Part shown: in pieces, positions 3,859-23,792 of the stretch
Layout of the letters: each line of letters opens with the position of its first letter
Numbering within the stretch: the first letter of the stretch is position 1
Assembly (NCBI GenBank): GCA_016203665.1
Contig: JACQMJ010000005.1
Location: 1,516-65,515 of the forward strand
DNA length: 64,000 nt
Direction: 5' to 3'
Origin: Candidatus Sungiibacteriota bacterium
Lineage (GTDB): Bacteria; Patescibacteriota; Minisyncoccia; Sungbacterales; SURF-37
Translations under genes and position numbers: made by a program
The notes under the pieces: model-generated
Database searches by the model: none
What the model was told of the DNA's origin: nothing
Seen by the model: only the letters and a program-made list of their open reading frames with translations

Positions 3859-4035
3859 GTATTTGTCCTCCTCCTTTGACTTCCATCCCTGGCCATGCTA
3901 CCGTCCCCCTTGGGAGTTAAAAGCTCCCTAAAGGTCATCTTATCGTATCGAATACCGTCGTTTTACGAAGTATCAGGTGCTACGAATGCGTAGTATTCCA
4001 AGTTCGTAAAATAGTGCGTATTCGCAGCACCAATA

Positions 4036-4251
4036 ATGTATCAGCGAGACAACACCGCCGGCTTTGGGCCGCGACCGATGTTTACGCCCAAGGATGGCGT
4101 CTCCTGGACCTGCGCACAGTGCGGGGCCGAGATCACGGAACTGCCGTTCCAGCCGCGAACGGACGAGAACGGCGTTCCGACCTCTCCCCTTTACTGCCGC
4201 ACCTGCCACCGCGCACGGATGCAGGACGCAGGCCCCCGGCGACGGTACTAA
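4036..4251 (+). CDS. small zinc-ribbon protein (CxxC...CxxC)
   Basis: CAQC and CRTC pairs around an ELPFQP segment; followed by a clean terminator. Confidence 0.55.
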   Translation: MYQRDNTAGFGPRPMFTPKDGVSWTCAQCGAEITELPFQPRTDENGVPTSPLYCRTCHRARMQDAGPRRRY

Positions 4252-4262
4252 ACCCGTCAGCG

Positions 4263-4296
4263 CAAATCCCCGGATGGAACCGGGGATTTGTGTTTG
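4263..4296 (+). terminator. Rho-independent terminator
   Basis: AAATCCCCGG-atggaa-CCGGGGATTT followed by GTGTTTGG. Confidence 0.7.
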
Positions 4297-4427
4297 GAGT
4301 ATTTTCAGTTACCATTTGGGGACCACTTTTAAATTACAAACCACAAGCATTAAATTCCAAACAAGCCCAAAATTCAAAATTCCCACGCCGTTTGTAATTT
4401 GGAATTTGTTGTTTGGGGTTTTGCCCT

Positions 4428-21777: not shown

Positions 21778-21810
21778 GAAAAACGCCCAGGATAGCTTCT
21801 ATCCCGGGCG
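21778..21810 (-). terminator. hairpin terminator between convergent serS and the downstream gene
   Basis: CGCCCAGGATAG-ctt-CTATCCCGGGCG with A-run on + side (U-tract for minus strand). Confidence 0.6.
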
Positions 21811-22173
21811 CCGCTGTTCGGTCTTTTCGTCTTCGGCGGACTCGAGCCGAGAGTCTATTTCCCGAGCGGGGTAGACGGATTGGGCGATTTTTTCAGCCAG
21901 TGCTTTCTTTTCTGCCGAATCCACTGTCCCGATGAGGAGGACGGTACCGTCGTACGTATCGTCCACGATAACTTGAGGAAGTCCGGCCTCACCAAGTGCC
22001 AAGATAAGTCTTGGAAATAGCGAGGCGCCGGGGAGCCGTTCCGGGTTTTCGCCGCGGTGAAGGCAGTTGCACCGGATGCGGTTGCCCTCCGCCCAGTTAG
22101 GTTCACGCCAGTAATGATGCGTGCAGGTAGCAGCATCGCCGTTTATCCGTTCGCCGCATACTGGACAACGCAT
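21799..22173 (-). CDS. hypothetical protein, N-terminal Cys/His zinc-ribbon-like region and BON-like C-terminus
   Basis: GGTGAGG SD 4 nt upstream; CPVC...CTHH...CNCLH; VLLIGTVDSAEKKALAEKIA resembles BON domains. Confidence 0.55.
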   Translation of the reverse strand: MRCPVCGERINGDAATCTHHYWREPNWAEGNRIRCNCLHRGENPERLPGASLFPRLILALGEAGLPQVIVDDTYDGTVLLIGTVDSAEKKALAEKIAQSVYPAREIDSRLESAEDEKTEQRRPG

Positions 22174-22313
22174 GCATCCTCACCTTCTTTCTGCCGCCTG
22201 CCACGGATTTCTTTCCATCAGTAGCAGGATTATCATCATATGTCAATCATATGCGCGTAGTAGGCATGCGGACCGAGGTAGAATTAAAAACGGCCCCATG
22301 CTGATGTAGTTAT

Positions 22314-22369
22314 CCATAAAAGAATAGCCGCCGGAACCCTTGGCACCGAGTGCCTTGGATTCCGGCGGC
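22314..22369 (-). terminator. Rho-independent terminator of orphan unit
   Basis: GCCGCCGGAA..GGCAC / GTGCC..TTCCGGCGGC long hairpin followed (minus sense) by TATTCTTTTAT. Confidence 0.7.
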
Positions 22370-22688
22370 TGGCCCGCCTTAGATGGTTTGCCCCAGTGAA
22401 GCTCGGGGCTTCAGCGGCGGGCCTGCCGATCCTGCGCGCAAGGGGCCGGCGAAGAGGAGCGAAACGACTTCCTTACGACTTCCTTGAAGAAGAGCGCTGC
22501 GAGCGGCGGACCCCGAAGAAAACCTCTATCGGCCTAGCCCACACATCCTATCCGGCTGGCCATGGAGGTTGCCGCCGCTCTGCGGCGCGACCCCGCCCCT
22601 GCGCCACCAGGCGCTTGGAGGGGCGGAGTACTACGGCAGGACCCCGCGGGCGAATTGCGTTCGGCCGCGGGGCGCCGCCCGGGCCGGC

Positions 22689-22778
22689 CTAGACGTCGGC
22701 CGCCGGCGCCGCCAGGTCCTTCATCTTGTTCATCTTGTTGTAAGCCCCCATGGCGGGGGCGAAGGGCGGACTCTTCAT
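22689..22778 (-). CDS. candidate 29-aa small ORF (MKSPPFAPAMGAYNKMNKMKDLAAPAADV)
   Basis: TAAGGAGG 9 nt upstream of the ATG; the only SD-preceded ORF in a roughly 570-nt promoter-to-terminator unit. Confidence 0.35.
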   Translation of the reverse strand: MKSPPFAPAMGAYNKMNKMKDLAAPAADV

Positions 22779-22889
22779 GCTCTTTTGCCTCCTTACCCAG
22801 TCCCGCTGGGCTCGGCCGCTAAGCATTCAAGCGCACCTGCGCCTGTTTGCCTGCGGTTGAAGGTACTTGCCAGTACATCGAATATTAGT

Positions 22890-22918
22890 ATCTTACCAAA
22901 CGCCGTCAACCTTGTCAA
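22890..22918 (-). promoter_or_regulatory. sigma70-like promoter of orphan unit
   Basis: Minus-strand TTGACA-17 nt-TAAGAT. Confidence 0.5.
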
Positions 22919-22967
22919 GAGGGCCATTTTATTGCCTGATTTTATATGCTAATATGCGGCTGAACGC

Positions 22968-23792
22968 ATGTTCCGCGAAAGCCGCATAATATACCCCGTC
23001 AAAACCAAAACAACGCGGCCCGCAAATAGCCGCAGGGTTTTGGCATTGGCCGCGGTTGCGGCTTTTTTCGCGCTCGCGGCGGCTCTTTGGTATGTTTCCG
23101 GTCTTTCCGCGCTTGCCGTTAATAACATAGAAGTCGCCGGCGCTGATAACATCCCGAAAGAGGAAATACGGCAGGCGATTGAGGTCTCCATTGCCGGGCG
23201 ATGGTGGTCCCTTGTTCCAAAAAATAACTATTTTGCGGTTTCGGCCGGCCGCACCGAAGAAAATATCCGCGTGAAGTTTCCGGAACTGGCCGCCGTAAAT
23301 GCGGATAAAATATTTCCGCACGGCCTTCGCATCAGCGCCTCCGGCCGTAAACTATGGGGCGTGTATTGCATGCGGCCCGCGTTATCCGCTCCGGCCGCTC
23401 CCTGTGCTTATCTGGATGCCGGCGGCACGGCTTACGAGGAGCTTTTGCGATATAACGGCTGGCTTCTGCCGGTTATCTACGGTTCTTCAGTCGTCAAGCC
23501 GGGCGAAATAGCCGTGCCGCCGGCAATGCTTGAATTTTTCAATCAGGCTAAAACCGAGCTTGAATCTCTTAACGGATATGCGCTCTCGTTTTCTTTTTCT
23601 ACGACAACGCCCGATGAGGTCCGGCTTGATCTTGCCGAGGGCTTTAGCCTCCGCATAACGCCCTCTCGCCCCATCAGCGAGTGGTTGGGCGTGCTGAAAA
23701 CGGTGCTGGAAAAGGATATCGGCGCCCGGCGGGCCGAGCTTGAATACGTGGATCTCCGTTTCGGTGCGAAAGTTTTCTATAAGTTTCGGTAA
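22968..23792 (+). CDS. FtsQ-type POTRA cell-division protein
   Basis: N-terminal TM anchor, POTRA-like NNIEVAGADNIPKEEIRQAI segment, typical size. Confidence 0.75.
   Translation: MFRESRIIYPVKTKTTRPANSRRVLALAAVAAFFALAAALWYVSGLSALAVNNIEVAGADNIPKEEIRQAIEVSIAGRWWSLVPKNNYFAVSAGRTEENIRVKFPELAAVNADKIFPHGLRISASGRKLWGVYCMRPALSAPAAPCAYLDAGGTAYEELLRYNGWLLPVIYGSSVVKPGEIAVPPAMLEFFNQAKTELESLNGYALSFSFSTTTPDEVRLDLAEGFSLRITPSRPISEWLGVLKTVLEKDIGARRAELEYVDLRFGAKVFYKFR

Follow-up and report, generated by a model that had tools for sequence, protein, structure and literature searches.

In the leader-peptide attenuators and stalling leaders trpL and tnaC, a short coding region with a strong Shine-Dalgarno (SD) sequence lies ahead of a terminator and a gene on the same strand. 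Long 3' untranslated regions (3'UTRs) that end in their own terminator, or small RNAs (sRNAs) made from such regions, are exemplified by icaR of Staphylococcus aureus and by CpxQ and SroC of enterobacteria. RNAIII of S. aureus (Rfam RF00503) is 514 nt long, has 14 stem-loops and carries in its 5' part an open reading frame (ORF) of 26 amino acids (aa), which encodes delta-hemolysin (PMC12612679). VcdRP is 306 nt long and encodes VcdP, a protein of 29 aa (PMC8672173, PMC12612679). In dual-function sRNAs such as VcdRP, SgrS/SgrT and SR1/SR1P, relatives conserve the peptide as well as the segment that base-pairs, as exemplified by SR1 (PMC3526287).

Here we analysed a region of ~570 nt within a 64,000-nt stretch of contig JACQMJ010000005.1 from a Candidatus Sungiibacteriota bacterium, hereafter called the window. 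The region, referred to as the unit, lies on the minus strand divergent from ftsQ and contains a predicted promoter, a 29-codon ORF, a long GC-rich tail and a terminator. The unit is new and orphan; it matches no curated RNA or protein family. We propose, with a probability of about 0.55, that a lineage-specific 29-aa protein is encoded here by a stand-alone mRNA whose leader is structured and whose 3'UTR is very long and dense in hairpins.

Signals and coding signature of the unit

The initial annotation had claimed a minus-strand promoter TTGACA-17-TAAGAT, an SD sequence 9 nt before an ATG, and a long hairpin terminator with a U-tract. All three were recovered (Table 1), and the promoter agrees with the sigma-70 consensus at 10 of 12 positions. 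A scan of 2 kb gave four promoter-like sites versus 1.0 expected, and a second match, TTGACG-16-TAATAT at 22909-22882 on the minus strand, overlaps the first. The transcript is predicted to start at ~22883 and to end at ~22316. Its leader would form a small hairpin, GUACU-GGCA-AGUAC (22876-22863), a long one (22856-22816) and a third, GCCCAG/CUGGGU (22811-22795), which reaches the SD. The SD itself is mostly unpaired according to predicted unpaired probabilities, and no convincing anti-SD pairing within the unit was seen in the fold or by eye.

Table 1. Features of the unit and of the genes on either side, in window positions; minus-strand features follow the predicted direction of transcription.
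Feature	Position	Strand	Details
ftsQ	22968-23792	+	head-to-head with the unit
Sigma-70-type promoter (predicted)	22890..22918	-	-35 TTGACA 22918-22913; 17-nt spacer with TG; -10 TAAGAT 22895-22890
Structured 5' leader (predicted), ~105 nt	22779..22883	-	22790-22860: -37.1 kcal/mol, z = -4.2
SD sequence TAAGGAGG	22795-22788	-	near-consensus; 9 nt (CAAAAGAGC), then ATG at 22778
29-codon ORF and UAG stop (22691-22689)	22689..22778	-	peptide MKSPPFAPAMGAYNKMNKMKDLAAPAADV
Composite GC hairpin (fold)	22671..22713	-	stop codon of the ORF in the apical loop
Non-coding 3' tail, 373 nt	22316..22688	-	68% GC; flat codon-position GC, 0.69/0.68/0.73
Tail hairpin CCCCGCGG/CCGCGGGG	22640-22672	-	z = -3.3
Tail hairpin CCGCCCCT/AGGGGCGG around GCGCC/GGCGC	22588-22632	-	z = -5.3
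Branched domain closed by GAGCGGCGG/CCGCCGCUC	22494-22590	-	
Long-range helix GAGCGGCGG/CCGCCGCTC	22580-22572 and 22509-22501	-	exact; in the minimum free energy (MFE) fold
Tandem 11-mer AAGGAAGUCGU x2 (RNA sense; plus strand ACGACTTCCTT)	22464..22485	-	
Tail hairpin	22371-22423	-	
Intrinsic terminator (predicted)	22316..22370	-	two-tier hairpin 22370-22326, then AUUCUUUUAU (22325-22316)
BON-domain/Zn-ribbon gene	21799-22173	-	

The ORF, which begins ~105 nt past the predicted transcription start, looks like a genuine coding sequence. GC at its three codon positions is 0.53/0.45/0.93 (93% at the third position, GC3); the ranges in bona fide genes of the window are ~0.53-0.74, 0.32-0.59 and 0.51-0.86. 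With a codon-usage log-likelihood score trained on 27 long genes of the window, the ORF reached 0.325 bit/codon versus a mean of 0.298 for real genes (range 0.115-0.462), and the top-scoring 29-codon segment of the unit on either strand begins exactly at the ATG. This is the sole SD-led short ORF with a gene-like codon score (>0.3 bit/codon) in the 17 intergenic regions of the window; a weaker candidate, at 2696-2770, scored 0.19 bit/codon with a GC3 of 0.58. Gene callers in two assemblies also called the ORF. Translation is supported by the SD, the GC3 of 0.93 and the gene-like codon usage. The peptide is non-hydrophobic and rich in Pro, Ala and Lys, and contains no hydrophobic stretch.

The stop codon of the first short ORF lies in the apical loop of a predicted hairpin in six of 11 related units, compared with 19% of control stop trinucleotides (binomial P 0.01, for units that are not independent of one another). 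A stop codon in the loop was observed at the related loci L087, L092, L094 and L100, and in L097 the stop-codon hairpin is the terminator itself.

The 3' tail

The tail is about four times as long as the 90-nt coding region. It contains no minus-strand ORF of at least 25 aa and no codon periodicity. The plus-strand ORFs of the region (98, 86 and 127 aa), which the initial annotation had dismissed as junk, have neither Pfam matches nor codon periodicity, in agreement with that view. GC content peaks at 73.5% within the unit, compared with 58.8% for the window.

We compared predicted folding energies with those of dinucleotide shuffles and with 98 control segments, each 375 nt long, drawn from these 64 kb, which had a mean z of -1.1 (sd 1.5). 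The tail folds 32-36 kcal/mol better than its shuffles, the largest excess in comparison with the 98 controls, and a repeat test gave z = -5.6 for the sense and -7.2 for the antisense strand. Thus, the structure of the tail exceeds chance. The unit as a whole gave z = -5.0 (minus strand) and -8.7 (plus strand). Since the two strands fold to a similar degree, energy alone cannot tell which strand is transcribed; the transcribed strand was identified from the promoter, the SD and the one-sided U-tract.

The helices named in the initial annotation are all exact and all part of the MFE fold, and its tandem 11-mer is found exactly where it had been placed. This 11-mer is SD-like and has no start codon after it, and it falls in the least well-defined part of the fold. 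AAGGA occurs four times versus 0.37 expected; two of the four stem from the duplication of the 11-mer. The terminator hairpin consists of 14 bp, an internal loop and 5 bp with the tip GGCAC-UCG-GUGCC (-38.1 kcal/mol, z = -6.5). A simple terminator scan missed it because of the internal loop.

Relatives of the unit

Relatives were collected as 18 FtsQ homologues (38-57% identity) with their contigs, 80 metagenome loci found with an ftsQ profile, and serS-anchored loci that contain ftsQ; the serS-anchored scan covered 185,579 species genomes and yielded 80 loci. About a dozen relatives have a unit of this architecture at the corresponding position, likewise divergent from ftsQ. In these related units, a promoter ~40-90 nt from ftsQ is followed by a leader of 60-190 nt, a strong SD, an ORF of 9-56 codons (GC3 mostly 0.8-0.9), a GC-rich tail and a terminator. 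Six related tails are 116-508 nt long with 63-69% GC and fold with a sense-strand z of -3.8 to -5.6. In three of these tails, folding is clearly stronger for the sense than for the antisense strand.

L090 is the only relative with both the leader motif of the window and an M[KR]SPP start. The 12-mer GGCAAGTACCTT occurs in the 5' hairpin at the same relative position in L090 and in the window, and in both, a 6-bp hairpin abuts the SD and the stop codon lies in or beside a hairpin loop. The ORF starts read ATG-A[A/G]G-AG[T/C]-CC[G/T]-CCC, which encodes M[KR]SPP with synonymous differences. The remainder of the 26-aa peptide of L090 and its tail cannot be aligned with the window. Another leader sequence, CAAGCACCTT, was found in L085.

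L084, L087 and L092 group together, with FtsQ proteins that are ~56% identical. In this subgroup, the leader, SD, ORF start and terminator are highly conserved, as are the ORF end and its hairpin, GGCGGCGG-AUCGAGYAUCUAG-CCGCCGC. The ORF interior has in-frame indels of 13-16 codons (the ORFs have 15, 31 and 28 codons), and the tail interior cannot be aligned. Substitutions within the conserved coding blocks are all synonymous.

The terminator of the window resembles those of L084 and L087: it is two-tier, with a GGCAY-NNN-RUGCC tip and compensatory differences. An internal hairpin of L086 also contains the stem sequence of the window's terminator. Most of the peptides share a loose N-terminal pattern, M-x(0-3)-[RK]-x-x-P, which is too weak to indicate homology.

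Neither nhmmer nor blastn found a homologue of the unit in the 80 serS-anchored or the 80 metagenome loci, and searching metagenomes for exact matches to the motif of leader and ORF start gave no hits. The tail has no alignable homologue among 170 related loci; its other copy, L082, is identical. MAFFT alignment of the unit with L084, L085, L086 and L090 aligned only the terminator or, with L090, the leader. Nine-mers shared with relatives were not more frequent than in shuffles. The nearest relatives are too distant for covariation analysis, and none has a tail that aligns with that of the window.

In L003, L086 and L087, the unit is followed by a convergent gene (alr, serS, or an unnamed ORF of 100 aa). 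These three units therefore stand alone, with no downstream gene to regulate in cis. L083 and L088 have no unit, and a BON-domain or Zn-ribbon gene abuts ftsQ there. Judged from this gene content, the unit is both stand-alone and dispensable across relatives.

Three other features were observed in the same spacers. An element of ~45 nt, TTTTTATTGTTTGTCYGCCAGAATACC followed by a GC hairpin (CGCCGCTNTGCGGCG), stands directly past unit terminators at approximate minus-strand positions 1960-2010 of L084, 1770-1800 and 1985-2030 of L085, 3690-3740 of L086 and 1-30 of L090. L085 has two copies and the window has none; the element could be a hairpin module that is repeated or mobile, or a site bound by a protein. 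Short ORFs of a second family, with members such as MARASPVATATTAKWKGLFTTK, MATRARPIPTTTKKTSITAHVIKATTSTA and MTIRGQPITPTTPRAIDKKIVTRATTKTA, lie upstream of ftsQ at L003:8205-8273, L086:3758-3847 and in the region L087:818-913, all on the minus strand, and in L089. These ORFs have strong SDs, and GC3 is 0.91-0.93 in three of four; they encode basic, Thr-rich peptides that match no family. In addition, a DnaA box-like motif, TGTGGAT(R), is present ~35-45 nt upstream of ftsQ in most relatives (L083-L100). A perfect TGTGGATAA follows the unit terminators in L086 and L087, and the window has TATGGATAA past its terminator (22310-22318). These sites do not mark an origin, because the boxes are not clustered and GC skew does not switch; the motif may serve as a -35 element or bind a regulator.

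Known RNA and protein families

The initial annotation had named a known RNA, or a normal protein gene in relatives, as findings that would speak against its proposal. Neither was found: no relative that we examined has a normal protein gene at this place of which the unit could be a decayed form, and a search of Rfam 15, which the initial annotation had suggested, gave no match at the gathering threshold anywhere in the window. The classes covered include RNase P, tmRNA, 6S, SRP, OLE, GOLLD, HEARO, ROOL, raiA and RNAIII as well as riboswitches and leaders. In a permissive local Rfam scan (E up to 10), the best minus-strand hit was THF (18.2 bits, E = 0.95), which falls below the threshold of 36; the others were miRNA and sRNA matches at chance level. 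ARAGORN found no tRNA or tmRNA within the window, and no T-arm or CCA-end motif was visible. Pfam and NCBIfam gave no match for the peptide, the related peptides or the plus-strand ORFs.

Several other candidates were considered and rejected. RNase P-like motifs seen by eye (AGGAAGUCG and GGUAAGG...AAGAGC) are in the wrong order and have no covariance-model support. A type I toxin-antitoxin system was rejected because the peptide has no hydrophobic stretch and no antisense promoter was detected across the unit. The neighbouring genes (lysS, serS, the BON-domain gene, ftsQ, a PaaX-like gene and a PMT glycosyltransferase gene) argue against a precursor of a ribosomally synthesised and post-translationally modified peptide. 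A repeat of the repetitive extragenic palindrome or miniature inverted-repeat transposable element type, or a template repeat of a diversity-generating retroelement, was rejected since self-BLAST shows the unit to be single-copy within the window. A sponge for CsrA/RsmA was rejected on the number of GGA motifs, 9 versus 11.8 expected. As for oriC, the spacer has one DnaA box matching at 8 of 9 positions, and the window has 11 boxes versus 6 expected, unclustered and with no skew inversion. A decayed protein gene is disfavoured by the lack of periodicity and of family hits and by the absence of a full-length gene at this place in relatives.

Preferred reading and its alternatives

The sequence itself shows the signals, the coding signature of the ORF, a tail free of coding and folded in excess, and a recurring architecture in relatives; transcription, translation, the function of the peptide and the role of the tail are inferred. 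The region would be an independent monocistronic transcription unit, head-to-head with ftsQ, in which a strong sigma-70-type promoter produces an RNA with a folded leader. The leader would leave the near-consensus SD exposed, and ribosomes would translate the 29-aa protein. The stop codon would lie in the loop of a GC hairpin that opens the untranslated tail, and the tail would close with a very stable terminator just upstream of the BON-domain gene. The tail would have a generic, structural role, shielding the mRNA from 3' exonucleases and insulating it from the downstream gene. A role of this kind seems most probable because the length, GC-richness and excess folding of the tail persist in relatives and its sequence does not. 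A ribozyme- or riboswitch-like RNA would fit less well, because such RNAs can usually be aligned at such distances. The initial annotation had left the choice between a small-protein mRNA with a very long 3'UTR and a novel structured, possibly dual-function RNA. Codon usage, the SD, the ORF start of L090 and the short high-GC3 ORFs of other relatives favour the mRNA. The exceptional folding of the tail and the recurrence of such tails in relatives speak for the structured or dual-function RNA, but no relative's tail aligns with that of the window.

Several observations weigh against this mRNA reading. Peptide searches, for which the 45-aa extended ORF served as query, covered 5.8 billion clusters and 1.84 billion representatives and returned only the peptide itself. 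The peptide has just five residues in common with that of L090, and the compositional tests rest on a small sample, 30 codons. In addition, useless DNA is normally deleted from a streamlined genome, and a purely generic tail would be surprising there. The interval between the terminator and the BON-domain gene of the window contains no convincing promoter, and read-through into that gene may occur.

It is possible, though doubtful, that the RNA is dual-function or regulatory, so that the peptide is coded while the tail, or a 3' fragment processed from it, acts in trans as in RNAIII and VcdRP. The unit has its own promoter and terminator, as predicted from sequence and as expected of a stand-alone dual-function sRNA, and its layout is RNAIII-like, with a short 5' ORF followed by many stem-loops and a terminator. 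Its tail has the largest folding excess in the window, and long, GC-rich, over-folded tails have been kept in six related units of compact genomes, with the sense strand clearly the better folded in half of them. The retention of several hundred transcribed non-coding bases in compact genomes is what keeps such a function under consideration. On the other hand, the sequence of the tail is not conserved even where the leader, ORF ends and terminator are, its length varies from 116 to 508 nt, and in the window folding is no weaker for the antisense than for the sense strand. There is no enrichment of GGA motifs. A scan for RNA duplexes with the start regions of the window genes yielded duplexes with unrealistically long loops, and neither ftsQ nor the BON-domain gene stood out. 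A bolder and unlikely extension is that the unit belongs to a clade-wide class of fast-evolving, stand-alone transcripts head-to-head with ftsQ in Sungbacteria-like Patescibacteria. Members of this class would have a conserved leader, a short translated ORF with its stop codon in a loop and a long, GC-rich structured tail, and could be dual-function regulators, for example of cell division. Peptide and RNA body would then act separately, with the tail constrained in shape and not in sequence.

We consider it quite unlikely that the region is functionless intergenic DNA with fast turnover, made of insertion remnants or decayed genes, in which the signals are fortuitous. The rapid turnover of the sequence between relatives, the absence of the unit in L083 and L088 and the chance level of shared k-mers would fit such DNA. 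It would leave unexplained five independent signals that are correctly ordered and spaced, the ORF's coding signature and an architecture that recurs at this locus in about a dozen relatives. Furthermore, no frame contains remnants of a longer gene, Pfam gave no hits, and nothing similar was found by BLAST in phage and plasmid collections or elsewhere in the window. Still less probable is a cis-acting leader or attenuator of the BON-domain gene, with the short ORF as leader peptide and the terminator as a regulated stop. The unit and the BON-domain gene have the same orientation, the terminator ends 140 nt before the start of that gene with no good promoter detected between them, and in L083 and L088 the ftsQ-divergent promoter directly drives the BON or Zn-ribbon gene. 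Also, CCGGCGGCC at the 3' end of the ORF nearly repeats the 3' arm of the terminator. Against these points, ~320 nt separate the stop codon from the terminator, much more than ribosome-coupled attenuation could bridge, and the terminator is very strong. The BON-domain gene of L084 has its own TTGACA-17-TAATAT promoter past the unit, the units of L003, L086 and L087 precede convergent genes and not BON, and Rfam gave no riboswitch or leader match; on the distance, the convergent genes and the L084 promoter, a leader-peptide attenuator was rejected. The least probable of these explanations is a purely non-coding structured RNA in which the SD, ATG and ORF would be incidental or would act just as an RNA element. 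In its favour, the peptide is an orphan, and the L084, L087 and L092 units conserve the leader and the stop-codon hairpin better than the middle part of the ORF. It is disfavoured by the gene-like codon signature with the ORF exactly at the scoring maximum, by the frame kept across indels in relatives with synonymous changes, and by the predicted accessibility of the SD.

The locus and its neighbours

The gene order at the locus is greA, lysS, serS (+), the BON-domain/Zn-ribbon gene (-), the unit (-), ftsQ (+), a PaaX-like gene and the PMT glycosyltransferase gene. The spacer around the unit, 22174-22967 (794 nt), is the biggest gap without a credible gene in the 64 kb; the window is gene-dense and the genome compact. 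The window matches contig CAZLFX010000001.1 (assembly GCA_964559385.1), and an identical 4.5-kb Logan contig stems from run SRR12113383. FtsQ at the locus is labelled Candidatus Sungbacteria by NCBI, and the nearest serS relatives are all metagenome-assembled genomes of Patescibacteria, with identity of at most 65%. The order lysS-serS-(spacer)-ftsQ is kept across many Patescibacteria (serS-anchored loci L001-L072). The serS-ftsQ spacer ranges from ~130 nt to >2 kb and gains or loses genes (BON, alr) as well as short-ORF units.

The ftsQ gene of the window has no SD sequence, and an extended -10 element, TGCTAATAT, ends 12 nt ahead of its ATG (site 22947-22970, plus strand). In relatives, a -10-like hexamer stands just 4-5 nt ahead of the ftsQ ATG. 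This suggests that ftsQ mRNAs of the clade are leaderless or almost so. Elsewhere in the window, a 71-aa ORF (4036-4251, plus strand) within the gap 3859-4412 encodes MYQRDNTAGF...CAQCG...CRTCH..., with two CxxC pairs, and resembles a small zinc-ribbon protein. The 375 nt around it fold well on both strands (z ~ -5).

Significance

Patescibacteria, also known as the Candidate Phyla Radiation (CPR), have tiny genomes with very little non-coding DNA. To our knowledge, almost nothing is known of their small proteins or regulatory RNAs. The ~800 bp spent on a 29-codon ORF and a 373-nt tail suggest that small-protein and RNA genes are under-annotated in Patescibacteria. If the transcript is dual-function, it would be the first such regulator described in CPR bacteria, and it adjoins a division gene. 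If it is only a small-protein mRNA, it would illustrate that a functional structured RNA cannot be deduced just from GC-richness and an excess of predicted folding.

Comparison with known systems

Like trpL and tnaC, the unit has a short ORF (14-30 codons in such leaders) with a strong SD before a terminator and a same-strand gene. It differs from them in the ~320 nt between stop codon and terminator, in that no alternative hairpin logic could be identified and in the related units that have no downstream gene to regulate. The long untranslated 3' region recalls icaR, CpxQ and SroC, and by analogy it could stabilise the mRNA, pair with its own SD or yield an sRNA. In the window, however, the 3'UTR is 373 nt against a coding region of 90 nt, and the anti-SD pairing is not convincing.

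The unit cannot be assigned to the dual-function sRNA class, which calls for evidence for a regulatory RNA segment. In VcdRP, SgrS/SgrT and SR1/SR1P, a short ORF and a regulatory segment share one stand-alone transcript, and VcdP, like the peptide of the window, has 29 aa. In contrast to these systems, the peptide of the window keeps only its first five residues, in one relative, and no base-pairing segment was identifiable in the unit. RNAIII differs from the unit in having conserved C-rich seed motifs in its loops and a structure that staphylococci have conserved, whereas the tail of the window is not conserved and the unit has no sequence or covariance-model similarity to RNAIII. Furthermore, the peptide of the window is not an amphipathic toxin. 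In layout, the two are alike: RNAIII has its own promoter and terminator and a length of ~0.5 kb, and the unit, ~570 nt long by prediction, has its 29-aa ORF ~105 nt in, together with many stem-loops.

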